Source: a virus | Lineage: Duplodnaviria; Caudoviricetes | IMG/VR virus record: IMGVR_UViG_3300025892_000008 | Length of the DNA: 64,000 bases | Reading direction: 5' to 3' (one strand) | In this document: positions 12,262-33,770 of the stretch, in pieces | Layout of the letters: every line of letters starts with the position of its first letter | Position numbering within the stretch: position 1 is the stretch's first letter | Translations under genes and position numbers: made by a program | Notes under the pieces: generated by a model | What the model was told of the DNA's origin: nothing | Seen by the model: only the letters and a program-made list of their open reading frames with translations | Database searches by the model: none

Positions 12262-14556
12262 CTATACCCAACCGCCGATTGCAATTTTGCCCCAGCCCGT
12301 ACTCTTGCGGACATAGACATAACTGTCATCAACTCTAATTTCACCTATAGGTGCTACTTCTGTTTCTGAAGCCGGAGCCGCTGCACCTGGTGCAATAGTT
12401 CCTAACACTGTTCCTGATTCATTAATAACTACAGATGAGTCATCACTAAACACACTTCCGATAAGTTCACCTACGTGTGTTCCTCTAAGAACTCCATCTA
12501 CACCATCAACTAATTGTGTACTATTATCTGCAAATACTGAACCTGTTATATCACCTGTAAAGTTAAATTCAGGATTCGCTGTATGTGTTATCTCTCCTGA
12601 CGAAGCATCGTACATCAACATAGTTGTACCAACTGCACTTCTAATTGGTTTAACTACAAATGTATCTGCTCCAGCCTCAGTTAAAATATTGCCAGTTGCG
12701 TTAATTACAATTGAGTTTGCTGCTTGGTTTGAATAGCCTGCTTGATAACCAATTGCTATTGCACTTGCACCTTGAGTTGTATAACCGGCGCTGTTTCCAA
12801 GTGCTGTTGCTTGAGTGCCTTGAGTAAAACTTCCTGCGCCGTACCCAACTGCCACTGCGTTGTCACCTTGATTGTCATAACCTGCTGTTTTACCAAGTGC
12901 TACTGCTGAATCGCCTTGATTGTCATAACCTGCTGCGGTGCCAAGTGCTACTGCTGAATCGCTTTGATATCTGCTACCTGCCCGCTTACCAATTGCTACT
13001 GATTCTGCGCCTTGAACTACTTCGCCTGCTTCAGATCCAACTGCTACTGCATCATCACCTTGCGTACTTTTACCTGCTTCTTTACCAATTGCTATTGCTT
13101 CTATGCCTTGAGTAGTTCGACCTGCACTACTACCAAGTGCAACTGACCCAGCGGCTTGTGCGTTATTACCTGCTTGATTACCTATTGCTACTGAACTATT
13201 TTCTTGATCTGTTTGACCTGCTAGATATCCAAGTGCAATAGTTGGATTAGTTGTTCTTAAATTATATGTTTCTACTGGGCCAATGATCTTAGCATCTACA
13301 GCATCTACTAGCACTGTTGAATCATCAGCAAACACACTACCTGTAATATCTGATTGTCCACTAAACGCAATGTTTAATGTTTGTGTTCCACTGTTTCCAG
13401 TAAGAACAATACCGTTTCCTTCTTCTACAACTAATGTACCTGCTATACTAGGAGCAGCCAAGAATGTTCCTTTTACATCTACAGTTCTATATGCATTACC
13501 AGCCGGAGAAGCATTTGTAATTGTTACAATACCAGTTGCTGCATCAGTAAATACCGTTAAAGCAGCACTACCAGGTTGTATTTCTAGTACACCTGCGTTT
13601 GTTATTTTTACATTATCTCCAGTGCTATTATCAATATTAATACCAGCGCCTGCTGCTCTACCACTAGGTAATGCTGTTGTGCTTTGTATACTTCGAACAC
13701 CAGTGTTAGTTACTGTAACATTTCCTGTTGCAGAGCTAATACCTAAACCTAGTCCTGCTGTTAATTGTGTAACACCTGTGTTTGTAATTGTAATACTTTC
13801 AGCAGCACTATCCACTGCCATTGAAATTGCAGTTCCACTTATTAAATTTAATGTATCAACAAAGTCATCTGCTACTACTTGGTTTCCACTATCAACTTGT
13901 ACACTTTTGAAAAATGTTTGATCTGGATTAATTATTAATGAACCGTTTACAGTTGAACCTAACGGTAAATCAATTATACCTCCAGGCTTACCTTTTATTT
14001 GTGCTGAACCTAACCAAACACCATTAAATGCATTTGCATCATTGTCAGAATGTTCACCTGTATATAAAGACTTCCACGGTTTAGTAACACTACCTAAGTT
14101 AAATGTTGCAACACTATTAGGTGAAACATTCGTATTTAAATTTTCGAAATCCAAAGAATTGTATTCTGAAAATGCTTGGAAAATTCCACCACCTGAAGCA
14201 TATGCATCATATGTTGTGCCGTTTACTGATGTAGTTAAATTTTCGTCAGTATATAAATGAAAGGAAAATAAATCTATTAATTTTGCAAAAAAGTTTTGAT
14301 TATCTAATTGACTTATACCAGTGCTTGTTATGAATAATTTTTGACCATCGACTAACTCATGTTTGCTTGTAGCAACAACTCTAACAGGATTACTTTCTGA
14401 AGTTCCTGATTCAACATGGGCTATATCCTGATCACCTCCTCTCGAAAGTGTTGCGCCTATGATAGTAAAGTTTTCATTTACTTTTTCAAATGCTTCTTTT
14501 ACTCTGCTCCACACAATTGGTGGATTACCTGGATTAATATTACTATTGTATGCCAT
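12262..14556 (-). CDS. Tail fibre/adhesin with YadA-head-like repeat region
   Basis: N-terminal EAFEKVNENF anchor; three GSVF(A/S)D.S motifs; eleven 16-aa (A/S)(V/I)A(L/I/V)G..AG...Q repeats. Confidence 0.75.
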   Translation of the reverse strand: MAYNSNINPGNPPIVWSRVKEAFEKVNENFTIIGATLSRGGDQDIAHVESGTSESNPVRVVATSKHELVDGQKLFITSTGISQLDNQNFFAKLIDLFSFHLYTDENLTTSVNGTTYDAYASGGGIFQAFSEYNSLDFENLNTNVSPNSVATFNLGSVTKPWKSLYTGEHSDNDANAFNGVWLGSAQIKGKPGGIIDLPLGSTVNGSLIINPDQTFFKSVQVDSGNQVVADDFVDTLNLISGTAISMAVDSAAESITITNTGVTQLTAGLGLGISSATGNVTVTNTGVRSIQSTTALPSGRAAGAGINIDNSTGDNVKITNAGVLEIQPGSAALTVFTDAATGIVTITNASPAGNAYRTVDVKGTFLAAPSIAGTLVVEEGNGIVLTGNSGTQTLNIAFSGQSDITGSVFADDSTVLVDAVDAKIIGPVETYNLRTTNPTIALGYLAGQTDQENSSVAIGNQAGNNAQAAGSVALGSSAGRTTQGIEAIAIGKEAGKSTQGDDAVAVGSEAGEVVQGAESVAIGKRAGSRYQSDSAVALGTAAGYDNQGDSAVALGKTAGYDNQGDNAVAVGYGAGSFTQGTQATALGNSAGYTTQGASAIAIGYQAGYSNQAANSIVINATGNILTEAGADTFVVKPIRSAVGTTMLMYDASSGEITHTANPEFNFTGDITGSVFADNSTQLVDGVDGVLRGTHVGELIGSVFSDDSSVVINESGTVLGTIAPGAAAPASETEVAPIGEIRVDDSYVYVRKSTGWGKIAIGGWV
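12721..13248 (-). repeat. 11 tandem 48-bp (16-aa) coding repeats
   Basis: 11 x 48 = 528 bp; units DSAVALGTAAGYDNQG and DSAVALGKTAGYDNQG are nearly identical in DNA (tactgctgaatcgc at 12901 and 12949). Confidence 0.9.
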
Positions 14557-17500
14557 TATGATCTACCCACCGCTATTTCAATTGTTCCTATATGATCACT
14601 ATCGTAATCCTCAATTGCTTTACCAACAATTGTTCCTACTTTAGGATCTTCACTTACTGTTGCTACACCATGTATTCCTGCTGTAACTAATATATCACCT
14701 TTCTTAATTTTTCCTACAACTTTGCAAGGTACTCTACCAACAAGTGCTACTAGGTTTTTATGTCCTGGGCATGCTGTATACATAACATATGCTGCTGTAT
14801 TTGATACAACACCTGCTATTCTCTTATCTGTGCCTGTGTTCGAAGTTGTAACTTCCTTGTCACCACCAAATACTAACACTGTTCCGACTTCGTATTCCTT
14901 GTCACCTTCGTAGTATTCTGCAACGTCTGCTGAGTATGTTGCTTCAAGTCTAGATTCATTAGGTGAACTTCCTGTAAGACTCCATCTACCTGTAATTGTA
15001 CCAGCAGTAGTATTGCCGCCTGTTGTTAAACTGCTTACTTGAATGCTTGATGCAATAATAGGAGCATTTGCTAAACCATTTTGAGTTCTAAATGTGTGGT
15101 TATCATTATCATAAAAGTTTGATTTGTCTGATGCAAGTGTGCCGTCTTGTAAGAAAATTCCGCCGCCACCTCCGCCGCCAGTGCCGCCAAACGTATGCAA
15201 TCTAATAAATCCACCTGACCCAGATGTTCCAGAATCAACTGCTTCAAAGCCGTCAATGTTATACTGTGCTACGTCAATTATTCTACCACCGAAGTCACCG
15301 TTACTATCTCTAATTATAAGTTTGCCTGCTTCGACTGTACTACTATCACCTGCTGCATAGTCAATAATACCGTAATCACTATCAGAAGTTCCTGAACTTG
15401 CATTTGTTCTAGCAAGTAAACCTACACTACCAAACTGTGATTTCTTAACAGAACCACCTGCATCTACAATTGTTGTAAATGGAATATCTGCAACGTCACC
15501 AGGTGTTAGTGCATCATTACCTAACACACTCTGTGCAGCAACTTGTGCTAGTGCTGACTTAGGTGTACCGTTGTCTTTTAGTTGTACCCAACCGTCAGTT
15601 ACAGTAAATTCTGTACTACTGAAACTTGCTAAACCACTGCGTGCTTGTTTGACTGCTGCTGTTCCTGTTGGTGCATTTACATCAGTACCTGCTAATTGCA
15701 TTAATAATTTACTTTGAGCAATGTCAGCAGTTGCATTAACGTCTGCATCTAAAATTACATTAGGATTAAGTTGCGCATCAATTGAGTTTGCTGTTGAATC
15801 AATATCTAAACTTATATCACCTACAACTGTAACGTTTACAGCATCTCTATCATTACCTGTAAACACAAGTAATTGGTTTGCTGCTAAATCTGTAAATGTA
15901 AAGTTTTGTAGGTTATCAAAAGTAAAACTTCTCAAGTTCATTGCATCTTGAGGGTTAACTGGATTGGCAATATTTACAATTTTGTTTTGATTAAGATCCA
16001 TGTTGGCTTTCATAGCCTGTTGACCACTTAGGTCCATAAATCCACCAGTAACACTAGGTATTAAATTAGCATCAATAACCTTAGCACCACTGTGCGAGAT
16101 ACCTAATCTTCTTTCAATGTAAAGTCTTGCAGCATTCTCTGTAGGAACAGTATCAACTGCGTTATCTGAGAATGAACTATCTGTTGAGAATTCCGAAACT
16201 GGAACACCTCGTTTGAATCCAATACCGTCCAAGTTACTCAAAGCAATCGCTGCTGAGAATGTCACACGTCCTGTTCCTTGGTCAACTTTAAAGAAAGGTC
16301 CTACGTTAAAGTTACCAAACTGGTCAGTGGTTACATAGAACACACGTCCCACAGTACGTTCTTGTGTTTCATTATCTGCGTTTAATGCATTAACTGCTGG
16401 ACCATAAATTTCGTTTGGATAGTTTGTATCTGCATACGAACCACTACCAATTTCAAGTAAGTCATGTCCAGTTACACGAGTTAATGAAATTCTAATAGTT
16501 AAGTTACCATAACTGTTTAAACTCCTAGTTGGAACTGCACTTCGTATTGTGTAAGATCCTTCAAATTCTATTATACTATCTTCTAGTGGTCTATTAAGAG
16601 TTATTCTAGCATAGTTATCGTTAAGATCGTCTTCTGATTCATACTGGCTAACAATATATTCTTCACCTTTGAATACAAATCTTGAATTAGCAACCCGCGC
16701 TCGCTCTTGAGGAGCAACCGGAACAACACTAATCGTTGAATCACCTGCTCTACCTAATACTTTTGCAAAAGTCTGTGTTCCACTTTGTGTACCTGAAGTA
16801 TCAACTTCTACTGAACTTGCAAGTGCAGGTGGTGTAGTTGTTACAGTAAATTGTACAGAACTAGCACCTAAACTATCTTTATTGTTATTGGATACAAAAT
16901 AGTGTAGACTTTCGTTTAAACCAGTTGGTAATGATCCTGTTGTTTTTAATCTAATTACATCACCAACTGCAAATCCATGCGGTGATGCAGTTGTGAATAC
17001 TGCTGGTGCTGCAACACTAATACTAGTAAGCCCTGTAAATGCTCCAGGAACCACAGGATTTGCACCAGTTGTGCCAACACTTTCACTAGGTTGATATACA
17101 GTTAAATCAATGTAATCATAGTTTTCTCTAAGCGTAGTCTTTGTAATACCATCTGCTATTGCAGTTATATCTCCAGAACCAGCACCTGTTACTTCTAGTG
17201 CAGCACTAGTTTTACTTGTACCAATTTCAAAAGTTGTAGATGTTAAATTTGTTTCTAGTACAAAATATGTAATACCAGCAGTAATTCCTGTTGGTAATGT
17301 TCCAGTCGAAGCAAATGTTAGTCTATAGTCTGCTAACTGTTTGTGAGCAATAACATTTACTAAACTTAATCCTGATCCATTAGTTAAGCCTCCAAGTAAT
17401 GTACCGCCTAATGACGTAGTAAGTTGTATTGTATTATAAGTAGGAACATCAAATACATAATAAGTTGTTGATGCTGTTAATCCGTTTGCTGTAGTCTTAG

Positions 17501-20500
17501 GAACAAATGTATCACCACGTCTTAATCCGTGGTTTCTATCTGTAGTAAGCGTATTATTACTTGCAATATCAGTTACAGTAATAGTAAATGTTAGTACTGT
17601 AGGGTTTGCTACAGTAAATTCTACATCAAAAGCACCTCTACCTGCTGTGCTATCATTAAAATCTTCAAATTGTAATACACGATAAACATCGGTTGGCGAT
17701 TCAGCAAAACGTAAACCTGTTGATGGTCTTGTAGCAACGTCAGCAAGTTCACCTGTTAAAACAATTTGAGAATTACTTCTAAGTGACAACTTCGTTCCAT
17801 CTGAAATAGCAGCAAACAATCCATCAAAGTTTCCTGTTGTATCACTTGTTAAATTAAGTTTTGCAACACCTGTTGGTAAGTCTGTAGTTGAAACTGATGT
17901 AACAGGATATCTAAAAATTAAATTACCATGGTCGACTTCAAGTTCTGAATTGTTAAGAGGAGTATAATCATAATTGTTAACATATACAACTAACCCACCC
18001 GTTACGTTTTGGAAAGAAGCACTTGGGAAATAACAATCAACTCTCTGTGCAACATCATAATACAATGTTGTAGGAGTTGGAACTTCAAGTGGGTCTGAAC
18101 CATCTGCAACCAATGCATAGATACCATGTGCAGAAGAACCACCAATACTTCTAATCTGCGCACCATTAAGTGACATGTAAGAAGCATAACAGTAATATGT
18201 AAACATAGATACTGCTTCTGTTAAACCACCGTTAGTAGCCAACAAGCCGTAACCCATATCTGAAATCTGTGTAAAGTCATTCGATAACATTGATCTGTTA
18301 CCAGGCATCAATATTTCATATTTTCTCTGATAACTGTGTGTTCCGCTGCCTGCACTAGTTGTTGCAATTTGGACACTGCCTAAAAATTGAGAAGTTATTC
18401 TAAATGTGTTACCTGTTAGTCCTGTTTCAGAAACATAATATTCTTTGCCGGCTACTATTCCTGTTGGCAATGTTCCTGTTGTACTAAAGACAATTGTAGC
18501 GCCTGCTTGTAACCCGTGATCTGTTTTAGTAAACACAGCAGGATCTGCTTGTGTAATACTTGTTAATGTTTGTGCACCGGGTGTTAAACTAAAAGGTGTA
18601 GTTTCATCAAGTACAAGTGTTGCAGTACTTCCGCTCGCACCATATACATAATCTCTAACATAGTTTACTTTGAAAATATCATCGCCAACAATAAATGATG
18701 CTGGTAGTTCTGGGAATCTATCTAGTCCTGCTACATTAATACGTGTTGTGCTTGTGCTACTAGCGTGTAAAAATTGTAAGTTACCAGCAAACCCGTCAAC
18801 AAACATACCGCCTGCAAATGTTTGTGCGTTAATAGATTTACTAAATGAAGCACATTCCTGTGCATAAGGTGACTTAGCAAGTATCTGTCCTGTTGGATCA
18901 AGTGTCATAGCAAAACCGCCATGTCCTTGCATTGTCATCGCTCTAAGTATTACAGCATCGTTACATAAGAATACGTCAAGTTTATCATTATCTTTAGGAT
19001 AGTTTACACTTCCTGATCCATCAATTACATCTTCTAGTGCATCAAATAACTCTTCTAGTACACCTTCTGTACCAGTTTCTTTAACAAATGCTGCATCAGT
19101 AATTTGAAGGAACCCTGTATTATAAACTGTTGTAATAGGATCATTAGCAATAATTTTATCTAGTATAGTTTCTAAATATGTAAGTGATGCAAGTGTTTCA
19201 GAAAGTTGAGTTGTAATTGCAAGTCTTCCACTTGCATTTTGATAATATTTTAAACCTGCTGATATAGTTCTATTGTATTCACCATACTTCAAATCAAATA
19301 TCATTGCATCTAGTATCAGTCCAACATCTCGTTTACATAATGCTTCACTATAAGTGAATGAAGATGTATAAGGTGCTATGTTATTTGTGATTTGATAGTT
19401 AATCCAAGCAGCAATTTCTTCTTGCAAAAATGTTCTATTTAATTTTATAAGTGCTGCTGATGCTTTGTAGCCGCCGCCGTTGTTTATTCTAGGATATACA
19501 GGTTGTGTAGTATCTTCTAGGTAATGGTATCCATATAAATCGCTTGCAGTTGTAAGTCCATCAATGGTTGTATCTCTTCTAAATCTTTGGAAAGCCCAAG
19601 GAGAACTAGAAGTTCCTGCTCTTGGCTTTATGATACAACGTCTAAATTCATTACCTACAATAGCAACGTTCTGCGGAACTTTAATAGGATAGTTTTCCTC
19701 GTACACTCCGCTTTCAAGTAAGATAGTAATTTGTGTTTGGTTACTAATATCACCATATGATAGTTCTTCACCAATTTGGAAATTACCAAACTTAATATCA
19801 ACATCAAATATTTCATTTCCACTACTATCTAATGCACCTTCATGTGCAAGTATCTGTGCTTGTGCACCAGATGTTAAACCTTTAATAAACAAGCCTTCTC
19901 TAATATCTCTTGTTCTAAATGCAACTTCAGTGTCTGTTAAAACATCACCAGTATAATCAGTGCGCTGTCCTTCAGTCTTTAAAAGGAATCTAGGCAAATC
20001 AGCCGCAACAGTTGGAATGCTAGTAAATCCGCTTCCACTATCAGTAACTTCGATAGCAGTAATAACACCACCAACTACGGTTGCTTCACCAAACGCACCT
20101 ACGCCGCCTCCGCCAGTAATACGTACTGAAACTAAACTGTGTCCTGATCCACCATTACTAATTGTAACGTTGTTTACTTTGTAAGTAACATTAAATGTTG
20201 CACCCGAACCAAATGCACTATCTGAAGTAGTTGTAACTCCAGTAGAACCTGGCAATGCAGTATAGTTACCTGAACTAAGTTGTTTAAATGTTACAACACC
20301 GCCTGGTGAAGATGCAGTTGTTAAAACTTCATATTTTGCAGCGCCACCTGTTCCGCCAGCAAGAGTAATAATGTCTCCTGCTTGGTAGTTTGTTCCTACA
20401 GCATTTAATGTAATAGTATCAACACTTAGTCTTGGTGATCCAACAAACCCTGTACCTGATGTAGGTGATGTACCAATAGTTGCTAGTTCAACTGATTTTG

Positions 20501-21311
20501 TTCCGTTAGCATAAGTTAATTTCTTTTCGTATGGACCAATATCGTCGTTAGATTCAAGTAAAATTTCTTCTGCTTTTTTACATGCTGCTTCAAGTGTTCT
20601 GTAGGCATAAGCAAGTGCTCTACCTTGTAAGGCATCTGAAACTCCTGTTCTAACATCAGAACCTGATGTTGCAACATATAAGTTTACACTCGATCCAAAA
20701 GATGATCCGTCAACATATGATTTAGTCGCAGCAATTAATCCATCGTATCTAGCATCGTCATCCGGTTCAGGAGAACGTGAAAGAATCAACGGCCCACTCA
20801 TAGTTCCAAAAGAAATATTTGTTGCGCCTGTAGCAGGATCTATTGCGTCAACACCAGCCTTTGAAATCTTTGAATCAACGTAGCCTTTGTTTGCTGCTTC
20901 ATCATCTGAAACAGGAGTAGCCATATCTTTAATACGGTATGTGTTACCACCTGAAGCAACAGATAAGTTACCACCAAGTTGTGGTGACGTATCACCTGAT
21001 ATTTCAGAAAACTCTGTGCTTACAATAATTTGGTTACTATTACTAGTAGTATCAACTGCTACACCAGTTCCGCCTGTAATCTGTTTAAATTGTAGTCCGT
21101 CTGTAGTATTATTAACAGAAACAACTGCTGCTTCTTGCCCAACGAAATTGGATGGTGTATCATCAAGTCCTAAGAAAGTTAATTTTTCTCCTAAACCTAA
21201 TGAACTGTATAATTCTCTAAAGTTATCGTTTACTTTACTAAACGAATCGCGGATACTATCGCCAGTTCCGTCGTTACCTACTACACCGGTATCTATTACT
21301 TTTCTTGCCAT
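14556..21311 (-). CDS. Very large tail fibre/spike-like structural protein (2251 aa) with C-terminal autoproteolytic chaperone-like domain
   Basis: N-terminal GNDGTGDSIRDSFSKVNDNF; four HG(L/F)..G......TG.LPTG......Y(Y/F)V repeats; C-terminal ADVAEYY...GTVLVFGG...VALVGRVPCKVVG...GD.LV...GTIVGKA (peptidase G2/IMC-like). Confidence 0.75.
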   Translation of the reverse strand: MARKVIDTGVVGNDGTGDSIRDSFSKVNDNFRELYSSLGLGEKLTFLGLDDTPSNFVGQEAAVVSVNNTTDGLQFKQITGGTGVAVDTTSNSNQIIVSTEFSEISGDTSPQLGGNLSVASGGNTYRIKDMATPVSDDEAANKGYVDSKISKAGVDAIDPATGATNISFGTMSGPLILSRSPEPDDDARYDGLIAATKSYVDGSSFGSSVNLYVATSGSDVRTGVSDALQGRALAYAYRTLEAACKKAEEILLESNDDIGPYEKKLTYANGTKSVELATIGTSPTSGTGFVGSPRLSVDTITLNAVGTNYQAGDIITLAGGTGGAAKYEVLTTASSPGGVVTFKQLSSGNYTALPGSTGVTTTSDSAFGSGATFNVTYKVNNVTISNGGSGHSLVSVRITGGGGVGAFGEATVVGGVITAIEVTDSGSGFTSIPTVAADLPRFLLKTEGQRTDYTGDVLTDTEVAFRTRDIREGLFIKGLTSGAQAQILAHEGALDSSGNEIFDVDIKFGNFQIGEELSYGDISNQTQITILLESGVYEENYPIKVPQNVAIVGNEFRRCIIKPRAGTSSSPWAFQRFRRDTTIDGLTTASDLYGYHYLEDTTQPVYPRINNGGGYKASAALIKLNRTFLQEEIAAWINYQITNNIAPYTSSFTYSEALCKRDVGLILDAMIFDLKYGEYNRTISAGLKYYQNASGRLAITTQLSETLASLTYLETILDKIIANDPITTVYNTGFLQITDAAFVKETGTEGVLEELFDALEDVIDGSGSVNYPKDNDKLDVFLCNDAVILRAMTMQGHGGFAMTLDPTGQILAKSPYAQECASFSKSINAQTFAGGMFVDGFAGNLQFLHASSTSTTRINVAGLDRFPELPASFIVGDDIFKVNYVRDYVYGASGSTATLVLDETTPFSLTPGAQTLTSITQADPAVFTKTDHGLQAGATIVFSTTGTLPTGIVAGKEYYVSETGLTGNTFRITSQFLGSVQIATTSAGSGTHSYQRKYEILMPGNRSMLSNDFTQISDMGYGLLATNGGLTEAVSMFTYYCYASYMSLNGAQIRSIGGSSAHGIYALVADGSDPLEVPTPTTLYYDVAQRVDCYFPSASFQNVTGGLVVYVNNYDYTPLNNSELEVDHGNLIFRYPVTSVSTTDLPTGVAKLNLTSDTTGNFDGLFAAISDGTKLSLRSNSQIVLTGELADVATRPSTGLRFAESPTDVYRVLQFEDFNDSTAGRGAFDVEFTVANPTVLTFTITVTDIASNNTLTTDRNHGLRRGDTFVPKTTANGLTASTTYYVFDVPTYNTIQLTTSLGGTLLGGLTNGSGLSLVNVIAHKQLADYRLTFASTGTLPTGITAGITYFVLETNLTSTTFEIGTSKTSAALEVTGAGSGDITAIADGITKTTLRENYDYIDLTVYQPSESVGTTGANPVVPGAFTGLTSISVAAPAVFTTASPHGFAVGDVIRLKTTGSLPTGLNESLHYFVSNNNKDSLGASSVQFTVTTTPPALASSVEVDTSGTQSGTQTFAKVLGRAGDSTISVVPVAPQERARVANSRFVFKGEEYIVSQYESEDDLNDNYARITLNRPLEDSIIEFEGSYTIRSAVPTRSLNSYGNLTIRISLTRVTGHDLLEIGSGSYADTNYPNEIYGPAVNALNADNETQERTVGRVFYVTTDQFGNFNVGPFFKVDQGTGRVTFSAAIALSNLDGIGFKRGVPVSEFSTDSSFSDNAVDTVPTENAARLYIERRLGISHSGAKVIDANLIPSVTGGFMDLSGQQAMKANMDLNQNKIVNIANPVNPQDAMNLRSFTFDNLQNFTFTDLAANQLLVFTGNDRDAVNVTVVGDISLDIDSTANSIDAQLNPNVILDADVNATADIAQSKLLMQLAGTDVNAPTGTAAVKQARSGLASFSSTEFTVTDGWVQLKDNGTPKSALAQVAAQSVLGNDALTPGDVADIPFTTIVDAGGSVKKSQFGSVGLLARTNASSGTSDSDYGIIDYAAGDSSTVEAGKLIIRDSNGDFGGRIIDVAQYNIDGFEAVDSGTSGSGGFIRLHTFGGTGGGGGGGIFLQDGTLASDKSNFYDNDNHTFRTQNGLANAPIIASSIQVSSLTTGGNTTAGTITGRWSLTGSSPNESRLEATYSADVAEYYEGDKEYEVGTVLVFGGDKEVTTSNTGTDKRIAGVVSNTAAYVMYTACPGHKNLVALVGRVPCKVVGKIKKGDILVTAGIHGVATVSEDPKVGTIVGKAIEDYDSDHIGTIEIAVGRS

Positions 21312-22422: not shown

Positions 22423-22980
22423 TTATTCTCCTTGTATTCTATCGTTCACGATTGGCCAGTTTATGATACGCCAAATGTTCTCAAGATATTTGTCTTTAGT
22501 TGAGTCGAGCAAATAAGAGTGTTCCCACATATCAACAAGAAAAGCAATCTGTGTTCCTTTCTTGAAATCTTGATTAGCAATTAATCCTAACTTGCCTTTG
22601 ACATCCATATAACACCATCCACTGCCCTGAAGGCTCTTGGCTTTTTCTATGAATTCATTTTTAAATTTTTCGTAAGATCCAAACTTAGTGTTAATAAGTT
22701 CTTCAGATGCTCCTAAGGGCTTATTCCCTGAACTTGGTGATTGTAACATAGGCCAAAACAAATTATGTAAATGAGCACCACCAAAGTTAAAAGTGTCATC
22801 ACCTTCTTTGTTGTTGTATCGATCTACATATCCTTTAGACAACTTAGCATAGTGTAAATCTATACTTTCTTTGCTCATCACAGGTTCTAATGCATCACGC
22901 GAATACGGTAATGGATTTAAAACCAATGTAGGACGTTGCTTTTCAGCCTCTATTATGATATCTTTAAGTTCTTTTAGCAT
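22423..22980 (-). CDS. sod: Fe/Mn superoxide dismutase
   Basis: LPYSRDALEP, LHY (His ligand), GGAHLHNLFW, GSGW, DMWEHSY. Confidence 0.92.
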   Translation of the reverse strand: MLKELKDIIIEAEKQRPTLVLNPLPYSRDALEPVMSKESIDLHYAKLSKGYVDRYNNKEGDDTFNFGGAHLHNLFWPMLQSPSSGNKPLGASEELINTKFGSYEKFKNEFIEKAKSLQGSGWCYMDVKGKLGLIANQDFKKGTQIAFLVDMWEHSYLLDSTKDKYLENIWRIINWPIVNDRIQGE

Positions 22981-26966: not shown

Positions 26967-27405
26967 AGATTGCACTATTTGCTCCGTGTTCTGCACACTC
27001 TACTCTTACGCAGTAGCAACGGTTGTCACTCATTTCACGTACTAGTTTGTCTGCAAAGTTAAAAGCGTGTTCTGCAAATTTTTCTGCACCAACACCATCC
27101 ATTACAACAATTTCTGCTAGGTCAAGTTCTTGTAGTTCCATAAACTTGTCCATGTGTGGATCGTTTTTATCAATTGCTGTTTTGTGATCAAAGTGATCTT
27201 CTAGCCATTTCTTCAAAGGCTTTAGTCCACCAAAGTCAACTGCCCAGTTTTTGTTGTCTAATTCATTACAACCAAATGTAAATGTAAATGCTAAACTATA
27301 ACCGTGTAGCAAATGACAGTGTGAATGATCTGCGTTAGGCTGTCTGAATACTGCCGAAAGACCAATGTTGTGTCCGTAATGTTTTGTACTTAAATGTTTT
27401 CCCAT
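26956..27405 (-). CDS. queD: 6-carboxy-5,6,7,8-tetrahydropterin synthase (PTPS family)
   Basis: HSHCHLLHGY, VDFGGLK..K.WLED.FDH, GAEKFAE, VECAEHGANSAIY. Confidence 0.9.
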   Translation of the reverse strand: MGKHLSTKHYGHNIGLSAVFRQPNADHSHCHLLHGYSLAFTFTFGCNELDNKNWAVDFGGLKPLKKWLEDHFDHKTAIDKNDPHMDKFMELQELDLAEIVVMDGVGAEKFAEHAFNFADKLVREMSDNRCYCVRVECAEHGANSAIYEA

Positions 27406-27430
27406 AATGTTCTCCTACTATAATGTTTTA

Positions 27431-27468
27431 TGGGCGGCAGAATTAGAAGGGATGACGCCAAGTCCTTT
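27431..27468 (-). ncRNA. Candidate riboswitch-like pseudoknot in the queD 5' UTR
   Basis: RNA AAAGGACUUGGCGUCAUCCCUUCUAAUUCUGCCGCCCA: AAGG/CCUU stem, loop GGCG pairs with downstream CGCC; GC-rich patch between the promoter and the SD. Confidence 0.45.
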
Positions 27469-27484
27469 GTTAAACATACTAGTA

Positions 27485-27513
27485 ATTATACGTTCTATTT
27501 AGGCAAGAGTCAA
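27485..27513 (-). promoter_or_regulatory. sigma70 promoter for the queD-kdsA-kdsB-GT-PMM-uvsE operon
   Basis: TTGACT(27513-27508)-17 nt-TATAAT(27490-27485); a TAAATA also lies in the spacer. Confidence 0.8.
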
Positions 27514-28106
27514 GAACTTGAATGTAAAAACTTTACCGAAACGTTATTTCGATTCCACGTTTTTGGTAATTCCCAACTAGGATCGTTGTAAATTACAAAC
27601 TGCTTGTCAGGAAAATATTCAAAAACTTTTGCAATTTGATATTGCCAAAATGAATAATCAATAGGTTTTGATTTTTTAGAAGAATAATTGTTTGTACCTT
27701 TGTAGATATTATTGACTGTATTAGATTGACTAGGATATAGGTCAAACCCTAATAAAACAATTTCTTGTACTGGTAAATTTGCAGCCACAAGAACTGCATA
27801 AGGACCACTACCCCAATGTATAGGAGTATCTGCTTTTGTTTTACCTTTGTATGGTAGTTGAGGTACAAGATTTACTCTTGGATCTTCTTTTGAATAAAAA
27901 TTAATATAGTCCTGCCTAACATAAATTTTTGTATTTTTTGTGTTATCACTATCCAAAGATTCATCAACCATCCTTCTGTCGCAACATACAAGATGATCAA
28001 CATGTGTATCTCTGTGTAGAGCATTGCAACCGACTATTAGTCGTTCACCAAAACTCGAGAGATCTATTCCTTGTCTACTTTCGCCATTTCCTATTACTAG
28101 TGCCAT
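27510..28106 (-). CDS. GT42/Maf(DUF115)-like putative CMP-sugar-dependent glycosyltransferase
   Basis: N-terminal LVIGNGESRQGIDL...IVGCNAL resembles the GNGPS...RCN pattern of CstII/Maf proteins; IVLLGFD; TAAATA-N6-ATG start. Confidence 0.55.
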   Translation of the reverse strand: MALVIGNGESRQGIDLSSFGERLIVGCNALHRDTHVDHLVCCDRRMVDESLDSDNTKNTKIYVRQDYINFYSKEDPRVNLVPQLPYKGKTKADTPIHWGSGPYAVLVAANLPVQEIVLLGFDLYPSQSNTVNNIYKGTNNYSSKKSKPIDYSFWQYQIAKVFEYFPDKQFVIYNDPSWELPKTWNRNNVSVKFLHSSS

Positions 28107-30416: not shown

Positions 30417-31073
30417 TTAGACTAAATCATGTGCTAACGGAAATATATCTGCTATAACTTTTGCACAAGCATGTGCAATGTCCATATGCTCTTTTTGTGT
30501 TCCGTTTGCACCACGTAGTTCAATGTAATGGATCCAACTACGTAAACTACCATTCATATATAATGTAGTTTTTGTAATACCTTCAGGCAGTACTTTTCGT
30601 GCTTGTTCTTTAGCAATACCTTTTTTAATTGCCCAATCATATTCTTTCTTGGCCCAATGCGCAACACGCATTTGTGCATGTAGCCAATCAAGTTGTAGTT
30701 TTTCATCGGCAACATCAATACTATTTTGTCTGTTCTTTAGATCTTGTAATCGTGCTTCACTGTATTCGAACATATCGCCTTGGTCTTCAGGATTAGCATA
30801 ACGCTGACTAAACTCTTGGAAGGCAAAACTTCTATGTCTTACAATTTGGTGTGCAATATCACGTGTAGTTTGAATTTCTAAACAAGCACTTACCATTTCT
30901 AAAGGTGACCAATGTGCGTGTTTGATTAGATATTTAATTAGTTTTTCACTAGTTTCCATATTCATCTGATTACTAGGATTGCTTACTCTAGCACAATAAG
31001 CAATTAGCTCTTGGCAGTCTTCAAGTCCTAGTTCATCAGGTGCTTTACTATATGAAATTAATTTAACTTGCAT
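30417..31073 (-). CDS. thyX: Flavin-dependent thymidylate synthase
   Basis: AYCARVS, HWSPLE, IAHQIVRHRSFAFQEFSQRY, KEQAR.VLP, GSLRSWIHYIELR...TQKEH. Confidence 0.96.
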   Translation of the reverse strand: MQVKLISYSKAPDELGLEDCQELIAYCARVSNPSNQMNMETSEKLIKYLIKHAHWSPLEMVSACLEIQTTRDIAHQIVRHRSFAFQEFSQRYANPEDQGDMFEYSEARLQDLKNRQNSIDVADEKLQLDWLHAQMRVAHWAKKEYDWAIKKGIAKEQARKVLPEGITKTTLYMNGSLRSWIHYIELRGANGTQKEHMDIAHACAKVIADIFPLAHDLV

Positions 31074-31725: not shown

Positions 31726-32787
31726 ATGACTCAGCAAATTTCCAAAGTAACCACAGTACATCTTGAACTCACGGACAAGTGCCAGGCTCAATGCCCTATG
31801 TGTGCTAGGAATTATCATGGTGGTCCAACAAGACCCTTTATCAAGAATGGCGATATGAGCATTGATGATTTTAAAAAATGGTTTCCGAAATCATTCCTTG
31901 GACAATTACAAAATTTTTATAGTTGTGGCAACTACGGTGATCCGGCATTTGCACGTGATTGTTTGGAAATCTATTCCTATGTAAGAGAATGCAATCCTAA
32001 TACTAGATTGGCACTACACACAAATGGCGGAATGCGCAACCCGGAATGGTGGGCTAAATTAGCCAAGGTGATAGGAACAGTATCATATAGCACGGTTGTG
32101 TTTGCTGTAGACGGATTCAAAGGCAAACATGAACTTTATAGAAGAAACACGAACTTTGATAAAGTTATAGAAAATATGAAAGCGTATATAGATGCTGGAG
32201 GCGAAGCAAGAGTTGATAGTTTAGTATTCAAACATAATGAGGATGAAACCGAAGAACTAAAAAGTTATCTTCTTGCCCTCGGAGTGAAGGAAGTTAATTT
32301 TATAAGCACTACTAGATTTTACGAAATGAAAAAATTTGAAGTGCTTGATCAAAATTTAAATACTGAATATTACCTGGAACCAGCACAAAAGAAAGAATTT
32401 ATAAAACACCCAAACGCAGAGCTTGTTAAATTACTTGATGAGAATTACAGAAAGGATGTGTTTAGATCAGCAAAAATATCACCTAGGTGTGTAAACGAAG
32501 ACGCAATATATGTTGACCCGTACGGAAACATAAATCCGTGCTGTTATATTGGTAGCGACTATCTGGAAGAACCTATTGAGGAAACACTGCCGATTCACAC
32601 TCTTAGAAATCAGAGCGTGTTGAATACAAGGGCAGTATTAGATGATATCGGACATTACACATGTCAGTCAGGCATACTAGGATCAGATGGATATCTTTTT
32701 ACAGGGTTGGACAAGTATTGGCATGGTGAAGACAAATGCATGACCTGTGTTAAGGCATGTTCAAATGCAATAGTGGAGCGCAAATGA
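31726..32787 (+). CDS. Radical SAM protein 1 with C-terminal SPASM/Twitch-like cysteines
   Basis: CQAQCPMC; CGNYGDP; C-terminal C...YVDPYG..NPCC...C..AC. Confidence 0.9.
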   Translation: MTQQISKVTTVHLELTDKCQAQCPMCARNYHGGPTRPFIKNGDMSIDDFKKWFPKSFLGQLQNFYSCGNYGDPAFARDCLEIYSYVRECNPNTRLALHTNGGMRNPEWWAKLAKVIGTVSYSTVVFAVDGFKGKHELYRRNTNFDKVIENMKAYIDAGGEARVDSLVFKHNEDETEELKSYLLALGVKEVNFISTTRFYEMKKFEVLDQNLNTEYYLEPAQKKEFIKHPNAELVKLLDENYRKDVFRSAKISPRCVNEDAIYVDPYGNINPCCYIGSDYLEEPIEETLPIHTLRNQSVLNTRAVLDDIGHYTCQSGILGSDGYLFTGLDKYWHGEDKCMTCVKACSNAIVERK

Positions 32788-33770
32788 GTTTTACTCTAAT
32801 ACCCTTTGACAATATAGTTAAGTTTGGTCAGTCCACTATGATTGAACGTCCTTTGTTTAATGTTAGTTGGATACTGGGTAGATTTTGTAATTACAAGTGT
32901 TCCTATTGTTGGCCATATGCCAATACCGATACACCTGATCATCAAGACTTTGAAGTATACACAAACGCAATTGATGAAATAAAACGCCAAGCGAGAGAAA
33001 ACGGATTTACTGAATTTCATTTTAGTTTTAGTGGTGGAGAACCAACAGCATATAAAAAGTTTGGTGATCTAGTTGAGTACTATGCTAACGACAATGAGGC
33101 TAAGTATCAAAGCATACACCTTACAACGAATTTAAGTCCGGGTGAAAAATGGTGGGCAAGATTTATAAACAACACCAGCCACTTGACACGTCGTAGTATC
33201 ACTGCAAGTTATCATGCAGAGTTTGCAAATGAACAAGACTTTGGAGATAGATGTTTACAACTCATAGAAGGAGGAGTATTTGTTACAATTAATCAAGTTA
33301 TGGTTCCTGAATACTTTGAAGAATATTATGAACGTTGCAGTAGATTCGCAGACAAAGGAATTAACGTCACTCTTAAACCGCAGTCCGATCCTACCGCGTC
33401 TAGAATAGTAGACGGTTATACTGATGAACAAATTGACAAGTTACAAACAGGCTTTCCACAGAATTGGAATGGCGAGCAAATTATGCAAATGTATCTAGAA
33501 GATGCTAAAGGTAATGATTACGGATTGGATCAAGCAGAAAGAATGAATGCATTTAACTTTAATAAGTTTAAAGATTGGACATGCGCAGCAGGCTATCAAA
33601 GTTGCGTTATAAGAGGGGTGGAAGTTAAAAGAGCATATAGTTGTGCGGAAGAGCCTTTAGGCACGCTTACAGAGGGTTTTACGCTGTTTAAAGCACCATC
33701 TAAATGCATTACTAGCACTTGTGTAAGCAGTGCAGACAGTAAAATACCAAAATGGAAAGAACATGAATAA
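32784..33770 (+). CDS. Radical SAM protein 2
   Basis: CNYKCSYC, SFSGGEPT, C-terminal CAAGY...C...C...C; ATGA overlap with the previous gene. Confidence 0.9.
   Translation: MSFTLIPFDNIVKFGQSTMIERPLFNVSWILGRFCNYKCSYCWPYANTDTPDHQDFEVYTNAIDEIKRQARENGFTEFHFSFSGGEPTAYKKFGDLVEYYANDNEAKYQSIHLTTNLSPGEKWWARFINNTSHLTRRSITASYHAEFANEQDFGDRCLQLIEGGVFVTINQVMVPEYFEEYYERCSRFADKGINVTLKPQSDPTASRIVDGYTDEQIDKLQTGFPQNWNGEQIMQMYLEDAKGNDYGLDQAERMNAFNFNKFKDWTCAAGYQSCVIRGVEVKRAYSCAEEPLGTLTEGFTLFKAPSKCITSTCVSSADSKIPKWKEHE

Follow-up and report, generated by a model that had tools for sequence, protein, structure and literature searches.

The window analysed here is a stretch of 64,000 nucleotides from the virus record IMGVR_UViG_3300025892_000008 (Caudoviricetes). 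On its minus strand, which is also the strand quoted in an earlier sequence-only reading of this DNA, a queD-like gene is preceded by a sigma-70-type promoter and a short leader that contains a small H-type pseudoknot with two helices, P1 and P2 (Table 1). From the position of the promoter, transcription is predicted to start at about 27478, roughly 10 nt ahead of P1, so that some 73 nt of leader precede the ATG at 27405. The promoter and the short 5' untranslated region (UTR) assumed in that reading are therefore borne out. The −35 box overlaps the TGA stop codon (27512-27510) of the upstream open reading frame (ORF) 27510-28106. A comparable promoter is present in 68 of 101 unique homologous leaders, with the end of the −10 box 6–17 nt ahead of P1, and in most leaders the pseudoknot starts within about 0–10 nt of the predicted 5' end. 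No terminator-like site was found when the leader was scanned for one, which points to translational control. Our comparative data confirm the predicted pseudoknot as a real element, and the leader is probably a ligand-sensing translational ON riboswitch built on it.

Table 1. Positions of the promoter, leader elements and regulated gene in the window, and start-codon helices of five homologous loci. Bit score from R1, the covariance model of the motif.
Feature	Position	Strand	Sequence	Basis or remark
Sigma-70-type promoter	27485..27513	-	-35 TTGACT 27513-27508; 17-nt spacer; -10 TATAAT 27490-27485	11/12 consensus match
Whole pseudoknot, candidate aptamer	27433..27467	-		covariance-model match spans 27428-27470, R1 56.3 bits; covariation
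P1 5' strand	27464..27467	-	AAGG	pairs with 27450-27447; covariation in relatives
Loop L1	27460..27463	-	ACUU	C and first U invariant, second U nearly so; conservation in homologues
P2 5' strand	27453..27459	-	GGCGUCA	U27455 opposite C27437, conserved mismatch; 6/7 P2 pairs with double changes; U invariant
Loop L2	27451..27452	-	UC	C27451 invariant, just ahead of P1 3' strand, at preQ1-I specificity-C position; conservation
P1 3' strand	27447..27450	-	CCUU	covariation
Loop L3	27440..27446	-	CUAAUUC	terminal A-Y-U-C conserved; L3 of relatives longer, UAAA-containing
P2 3' strand	27433..27439	-	UGCCGCC	covariation
Anti-start-codon strand	27428..27434	-	CCCAUAA	first two bases are the last two of P2 3' strand; perfect 7-bp duplex with 27407-27401; equivalent in relatives covaries
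Shine-Dalgarno sequence	27412..27416	-	AGGAG	sequence reading; in nested minimum free energy fold pairs with UUCUgCC of L3 and P2 3' strand
Start-codon strand	27401..27407	-	UUAUGGG	AUG 27405-27403; duplex with anti-start-codon strand
Regulated gene, 149-aa PTPS/QueD-like protein P0001	26956..27405	-		Pfam PF01242 1.6e-14; phrog_2389 'QueD-like' 9.6e-40
Anti-AUG helix, L012			CCAUUAUUA / start-codon strand UAAUAAUGG	flanks covary
Anti-AUG helix, L052			UGCCAUUG / start-codon strand CAAUGGCA	flanks covary
Anti-AUG helix, L073			UGUCAUUGUU / start-codon strand AACAAUGGCA	flanks covary
Anti-AUG helix, L133			AAGUCAUC / start-codon strand GAUGACUU	flanks covary
Anti-AUG helix, L154			GCCAUAAC / start-codon strand GUUAUGG	flanks covary

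A pseudoknot of AAGG/CCUU and GGCG/CGCC had been proposed for this leader. Both helices exist and covary, but P2 (GGCGuCA/UGcCGCC) comprises seven positions broken by a U.C mismatch and not four base pairs. The loop lengths are compatible with a pseudoknot across the model-aligned sequences (L1 3–12 nt, L2 2 nt, L3 7–14 nt). The 3' strand of P2 consists of YGC and variable bases and has no Shine-Dalgarno (SD) sequence within it; the SD sequence follows 6–28 nt beyond this strand in the relatives, and 16 nt beyond it in the window. For the window alone, the nested minimum free energy (MFE) fold was no better than those of shuffled sequences (z = +0.48), a value without bearing on the pseudoknot, as single-sequence nested folding is blind to such structures.

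Evidence for the two helices comes from homologous leaders on uncultured phage contigs. A protein-anchored search of viral contigs returned at least 595 relatives of the queD-like gene, 80 loci were retained, and most leaders among these carry the same element with compensating changes. In the MAFFT alignment of 47 distinct gene-anchored leaders 89.4% of the cells pair, compared to 72.1% in shuffled alignments (none of 500 shuffles reached the native value). Changes on both sides were seen for 10 of the 12 pairs, the covariation score was 0.380 versus 0.114, and sliding the partner by 1–3 columns brought pairing down to 37–60%. The covariance model R1 has P2 as its structure, and P1 was left out of it. 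Its alignment of 86 distinct sequences gave 91.8% paired versus 68.5% after shuffling and a covariation score of 0.480 versus 0.135. P1 pairing amounted to 91.9% in this set and, since P1 is absent from the model, this value is independent of the alignment method. Thus both helices covary in homologous queD leaders, and the shuffle and slide controls are far lower.

The exchanges are extensive. P1 occurs as AAGG/CCUU, AGAGG/CCUCU, AGUGG/CCACU, GCGG/CCGC or GUAG/CUAC, and the variants of P2 include GGCGuCA/UGcCGCC, CACUuCA/UGcAGUG, AUGCuCA/UGcGCAU and GGCAUuCA/UGcAUGCC; AGAGG/CUCCGCCG and GCGG/UGCAUGCC are among the leader types of the relatives. The U.C mismatch and the neighbouring C-G pair of P2 are kept throughout. 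In the gene-anchored set, which is free of pattern bias, the invariant bases are the last G of P1, the C and U of L1, the junction-side U and C of P2 together with the G of its second pair, the C of L2, the first C of the P1 3' strand, and the A, U and C that end L3. All of them cluster around the P1/P2 junction. The larger set of 86 sequences gave the same picture of conservation, half of that alignment having been gathered with a pattern that fixes several of the 'invariant' bases. The equivalent of C27451 is invariant in 43 unbiased and in all 86 sequences, which substantiates the earlier remark on a C ending the loop ahead of the P1 3' strand; a C in this place is the specificity base in preQ1-I (PMC10622847). 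The lack of an A-rich tail, noted in the same reading, holds for the window's subgroup, to which the short, A-poor CUAAUUC is limited, but not for most relatives, whose L3 reads U/A-UAAA-Y-A-Y-U-C. A divergent element lies ahead of a queD homologue at L036:1674-1711, with P1 AGACG/CGUCU, L1 UCAA and a different P2; its low R1 score (13.5 bits) suggests that the family is probably wider than R1 captures.

In the window R1 has a single match, at the leader, and it matches most of the retained loci. The association with the gene does not depend on the protein search: in a gene-blind pattern scan of viral contigs R1 matched 62 of the 80 loci listed, and 60 of these 62 are immediately followed by a queD/PTPS homologue (34–94% identity to the window protein), the other two running up against the end of a contig or a short ORF. 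When 596 Gb of bacterial and archaeal genomes were scanned with this pattern, none of the 80 matches listed was an R1 match, and R1 had no match in 302 sampled genomes (151 cyanobacterial and 151 alphaproteobacterial); as positive control, five of five viral records were matched. Two motif variants compared by blastn with 50,697 isolate phage records gave no match, and a nucleotide query with the locus returned one weak coding match from isolate phages. At the queD loci of four of the closest isolates R1 finds no motif, and the gene abuts its upstream neighbour there without a leader. As far as these sequence searches reach, the motif appears to be known from uncultured phage contigs alone. 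DNA nearly identical to the window is present in marine metagenomes of about ten studies; in assembled metatranscriptome contigs, the summed depth over queD mixes many strain variants. A literature search found no description of the motif; with its incomplete coverage, this argues only weakly for novelty.

Two near-complete phage contigs of 353 and 356 kb contain exactly one copy of the motif each. On contig L078 a second, near-identical copy of pseudoknot and leader (L078:2132-2179) stands ahead of a 236-aa ORF (L078:2205-2915), which directly precedes the motif-queD unit and itself follows a gene for a B12-binding radical S-adenosylmethionine (SAM) protein. No Pfam or NCBIfam family was found for this ORF; the ESM Atlas places it among viral class I SAM-methyltransferase-like clusters with a score of 0.97. 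The copy ahead of a methyltransferase-like gene suggests a shared trans-acting signal.

The regulated gene product, P0001, stays below the NCBIfam cut-off for QueD (34.8 vs 89.25 bits) and has no sequence-detectable PDB relative at E ≤ 0.001. It reads C-x3-H-G-Y where QueD/PTPS has C-x3-H-G-H. Its closest isolate homologues are annotated as QueD/CPH4 synthase and are found in phages carrying queE, queC or folE; the closest, 54.7% identical, belongs to Synechococcus phage BUCT-ZZ01. QueE-like and FolE-like genes often adjoin the queD-like gene in other loci, and the 353 and 356 kb contigs each carry a FolE homologue next to a radical-SAM protein of 285–287 aa, whose five best NCBIfam matches are all QueE models, below their cut-offs. 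Because of these annotations and of the FolE/QueE context, the gene is best read as the predicted CPH4-synthase step of a phage 7-deazapurine branch. A tblastn search for QueE-like and FolE-like genes found none in the 64 kb of the window, which says nothing on the rest of the genome. No convincing QueC and no TGT or DpdA was found in the 353 and 356 kb contigs. BUCT-ZZ01 (L325, ON615601.1 66514-74957) has a cluster of QueE, xanthine-guanine phosphoribosyltransferase, a hypothetical protein, QueD and GTP cyclohydrolase I, without the leader motif. This cluster, together with the lack of TGT/DpdA in the near-complete motif contigs, may hint at a nucleotide-level route to 7-deazapurine rather than a transglycosylase route.

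How the pseudoknot could influence translation is suggested by a second pairing of the leader. In the window, CCCAUAA (27434-27428) and UUAUGGG (27407-27401) form seven perfect pairs that bury the start codon, with −6.4 kcal/mol for this duplex alone. Values of −1.2 kcal/mol were calculated for P1 alone and −5.0 kcal/mol for P2 alone, while −13.8 kcal/mol was obtained for the full alternative fold when the leader and 18 nt of coding sequence were folded as a nested structure. In this fold UUCUgCC, from L3 and the P2 3' strand, also pairs with the SD sequence, and UCCC with the GGGA that comes after the AUG. As P1 and P2 are weaker than this fold, the pseudoknot would need extra stabilisation to win, and the energies suit a switch.

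The start-codon helix is also found in the relatives. RNAalifold gave no consensus for the region from the P2 3' strand to the start codon, since MAFFT had placed the anti-AUG strands of the subgroups in different columns. The helix was therefore assessed by anchored duplex energies with partner-swap controls. Among 73 unique leader classes the native partners average −8.05 kcal/mol compared to −6.32 kcal/mol for swapped partners (Mann-Whitney p = 4e-8, a p-value that overstates independence since the leaders are related sequences), and shuffled strands average −4.33 kcal/mol. In 57 of the 73 classes all three start-codon bases are paired in the best duplex, which draws on 2 nt or more of the P2 3' strand (median 4). 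Covariation of the flanks is seen in the five loci listed in Table 1; at L133 the first codons resemble the P2 5' strand.

In agreement with a buried start site, the accessibility of the ribosome-binding site (RBS) predicted without the pseudoknot is 0.31 for queD leaders versus 0.48 for 373 other genes with an SD sequence on these contigs, and falls below 0.2 in 32% of the queD leaders versus 6% of the other genes. In the AGAGG/CUCCGCCG subgroup the SD sequence is almost fully paired to bases of L3 and of the P2 3' strand, with a probability of 0.01–0.07 of being unpaired, and becomes free once these are taken up. A complete P2 excludes a complete AUG-sequestering helix, so whatever stabilises the pseudoknot should open the start codon, as expected for an ON switch. 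The ON logic suggested by the sequence-only reading is thereby supported, but mainly through the anti-start-codon helix and not through CUUCUA/UAGGAG, the pairing put forward there. The latter helix is possible and is not favoured by the fold; the SD sequence is invariant, so no covariation signal can arise from it.

These observations can be combined into a two-state model. In the default OFF state, CCCAUAA would pair with UUAUGGG and bury the start codon, aided by the pairings of the nested fold with the SD sequence and with the GGGA just past the AUG. In the ON state, the pseudoknot of P1 and P2 would take up the anti-AUG and anti-SD bases and leave the RBS open. A small molecule bound at the P1/P2 junction would stabilise this second fold, in a putative pocket formed by the CUU of L1, the C ahead of the P1 3' strand, the A-Y-U-C that closes L3, and the U.C layer and C-G layer of P2. 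The locus has what is expected of a riboswitch: a covarying structure in the 5' UTR, conserved unpaired bases at the helix junction as in known aptamers, a consistent association with genes of one pathway, and an expression platform that is mutually exclusive with the aptamer by shared P2 3' bases and the covarying anti-AUG helix.

The invariant C, the analogy to preQ1-I and the QueD context lead us to guess at a ligand with a guanine-like face, for example a 7-deazaguanine (preQ0, CDG, preQ1) or a pterin such as dihydroneopterin triphosphate. An ON switch on the committed enzyme would be sensible if the ligand were the substrate dihydroneopterin triphosphate, the product of phage FolE, or a purine or deazapurine signal; the end product would be unexpected. 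Taken together, the element could represent a new riboswitch class restricted to phages, with a preQ1-I-like fold and inverted logic, turning on QueD translation with a guanine-faced heterocycle (a pathway precursor or pterin, or a 7-deazaguanine). This fuller proposal is tentative, and we rate it slightly short of an even chance.

Several points weigh against a ligand-sensing ON switch. It is unusual for a biosynthetic gene to be under an ON switch, except where a precursor or a signal serves as the ligand, and a small molecule and a protein fit the data alike as stabiliser. That P1 and P2 form simultaneously is deduced from the loop lengths and so belongs to the model. In the window's subgroup the RBS is only slightly below the background accessibility (0.42 free), and shuffled motifs give 0.30, with no enrichment over composition; for this subgroup we do not claim pairing of the SD sequence with L3/P2 beyond composition. 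In the window itself P2 and the anti-AUG helix share just 2 nt. In one subgroup, with a conserved CAAACUU(G/A)CU block after P2, the RBS is buried largely within the tail. The relatedness of the leaders and the partly pattern-gathered larger alignment, both mentioned above, also count here. The CAAACUU(G/A)CU block stands just 3' of P2 in L047, L051, L071, L098, L128, L103 and others and is paired with ribosome-binding sites of the conserved sequence GGAGACUAGAGAUG or GGAGGCAAGAGAUG. The simple two-state model does not account for the block, which may be an extra helix or a tertiary element.

The stabiliser might also be a protein. The pseudoknot would then be an operator for QueD itself or for another phage or host factor, and binding would shift the balance between the pseudoknot and AUG sequestration. 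Translational control by proteins is well known from T4 gene 32, gene 43 and RegA, and T4-like phages autoregulate by leader pseudoknots and hairpins. Covariation and junction conservation fit a protein site equally well, the motif is confined to phages, and its strict tie to one gene family suits autoregulation. However, the QueD proteins diverge to 34–40% identity while the pocket bases of the RNA stay invariant, and L078 has the same element ahead of a different gene. Size, topology and the position of the specificity C mimic a known metabolite aptamer, and autoregulation normally represses, whereas here the folded element is predicted to free the AUG. We therefore regard a protein operator as unlikely, though worth serious consideration.

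A constitutive structure without any sensing appears improbable. One form of it would be a pseudoknot at the 5' terminus that shields the transcript from 5'-end-dependent decay; in another, the pseudoknot and the anti-AUG helix would jointly set a fixed low level of translation. Bacterial mRNAs are stabilised by 5'-terminal structures, and the location of the element close to the predicted 5' end of most leaders is in agreement with such a role. A stabiliser has no need, however, for about a dozen invariant unpaired bases at a junction, nor for a second, covarying and mutually exclusive helix over the start codon.

Slightly less probable still is an OFF riboswitch, in which the ligand-bound pseudoknot, close to the 5' end and 16 nt upstream of the SD sequence, would block standby binding of the 30S subunit or speed up mRNA decay. 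End-product repression is the usual logic of biosynthetic genes, all preQ1 riboswitch classes described repress (PMC10622847), and in the window's subgroup the pseudoknot makes only a modest difference to the modelled RBS accessibility. Against this, P2 is without SD bases, its 3' strand shares bases with the covarying helix that buries the AUG, and in the AGAGG/CUCCGCCG subgroup the SD sequence is freed when L3 and P2 3' bases are taken up. Chance pairing in a GC-rich patch, which the short P1 (4 bp) and the unremarkable nested fold of the window might have suggested, is refuted by the covariation, its controls and the R1 matches in dozens of divergent contigs, and its probability is negligible.

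Other genes of the window were recorded as well. Downstream of queD on the same strand (window:22995-26996, -) genes similar to those for KDO-8-phosphate synthase (kdsA-like) and CMP-KDO synthetase (kdsB-like) are found together with GT8-like glycosyltransferase, phosphomannomutase-like and UvdE-like genes, a sugar/lipopolysaccharide-type cassette in a phage. A Fe/Mn superoxide dismutase-like ORF (22423-22980, -), ThyX (30417-31073, -) and two adjacent radical-SAM proteins (31726-33770, +) are also present; one of the latter has viperin-like and twitch-domain matches, and UDP-glucose dehydrogenase-like and epimerase genes follow. A 2251-aa ORF (14556-21311, -) has PHROG matches to tail fibre and baseplate wedge proteins and, with the neighbouring tail genes, its sequence suggests a T4-like myovirus.

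Confirmation would make this a riboswitch class that is apparently the phages' own and not borrowed from hosts, and the first preQ1-I-like fold that activates instead of repressing. The switch would then let large phages of marine and fresh waters time or gate a 7-deazapurine pathway without recognisable QueC and DpdA/TGT, as judged from the near-complete genomes examined. The data point to a regulated FolE-QueD-QueE branch in large aquatic phages lacking recognisable QueC or DpdA, for which modification of DNA or of the nucleotide pool and anti-restriction are possible purposes. The family also offers a natural test of how a pseudoknot pocket of 35–50 nt can be re-tuned, as another ligand may be bound, or the output inverted, through the longer P2, the U.C layer, the CUU loop and the A-Y-U-C tail. 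A tiny aptamer with a built-in ON platform would be an attractive sensor part.

Comparison with known RNA families gave no assignment. Rfam 15 at gathering thresholds gave no match to RF00522 (preQ1-I) in the window, and at E ≤ 10 this family was silent in 27300-27620 and in 10 diverse homologous loci. At both settings Rfam returned only chance matches resembling snoRNAs, miRNAs and sRNAs. A near-perfect 15-bp hairpin at L051:1395-1452 (-) was scored as mir-2187 (33.7 bits, E = 0.027), a family name that is certainly due to chance. The gathering threshold of RF00522 is 39 bits; genuine Bacillota examples, used as positive control, scored 34–56 bits, and R1 gave at most 10 bits on genuine preQ1-I. 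This is in agreement with the earlier view that the leader is not a canonical preQ1-I riboswitch.

Some known systems share single traits with the element. The leader of T4 gene 32, like the element proposed here, controls translation of a phage mRNA through a 5'-terminal H-type pseudoknot. It differs in that it nucleates cooperative binding of gp32 and represses, there are no common sequence features, and no Rfam match was obtained for our leader. SAM-II and SAM-V, the latter typical of marine bacteria, are likewise compact classical H-type pseudoknot aptamers; they hold SAM in a triple helix, have other conserved bases and are OFF switches, again with no Rfam match here. The predicted translational ON logic is that of the add adenine riboswitch of Vibrio vulnificus, in which the 3' part of the ligand-free aptamer pairs with the SD sequence and the start codon and ligand-stabilised folding frees both. 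The add switch is, however, a bacterial purine aptamer with a three-way junction and differs in ligand class and gene function.

The nearest known system is preQ1-I (RF00522; types I–III, e.g., B. subtilis queC, T. tengcongensis, E. coli yhhQ), a likeness of topology that had been noticed from the start and that holds, the element being a compact H-type pseudoknot in which both crossing helices covary. Both are very small pseudoknots in the leader of a gene of the queuosine/7-deazaguanine pathway, with a P1 of 4–5 bp that is closed by a G-C pair and reads AGAGG/CCUCU in many phage relatives as in Bacillota examples. In most phage relatives L3 begins A-rich (UAAA), as in preQ1-I, and the invariant C27451 occupies the position of the specificity base. 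Genuine preQ1-I reads AGAGG-UUC...C-CCUCU-AUAAAAAAC-UAAGG, and many phage leaders read AGAGG-ACUU...AC-CCUCU-UUAAAUACUC-CGCCGU.

The differences lie in the second helix, the loops and the output. The phage P2 has 7–10 positions with a fixed U.C mismatch, compared to 3–4 bp in preQ1-I. L1 is (A/U)CUU plus 0–8 nt, L2 has just 2 nt, and L3 ends in A-Y-U-C and not in a run of A. In preQ1-I the 3' strand of P2 holds the first SD bases or feeds a terminator, and the ligand represses; the phage P2 is without an SD sequence, no terminator follows, and the platform seems wired to free the start codon, whereas the known preQ1 switches repress. The leader motif thus appears, from its sequence, to be a pseudoknot aptamer that works in the manner of preQ1-I and stands outside the RF00522 family as defined.

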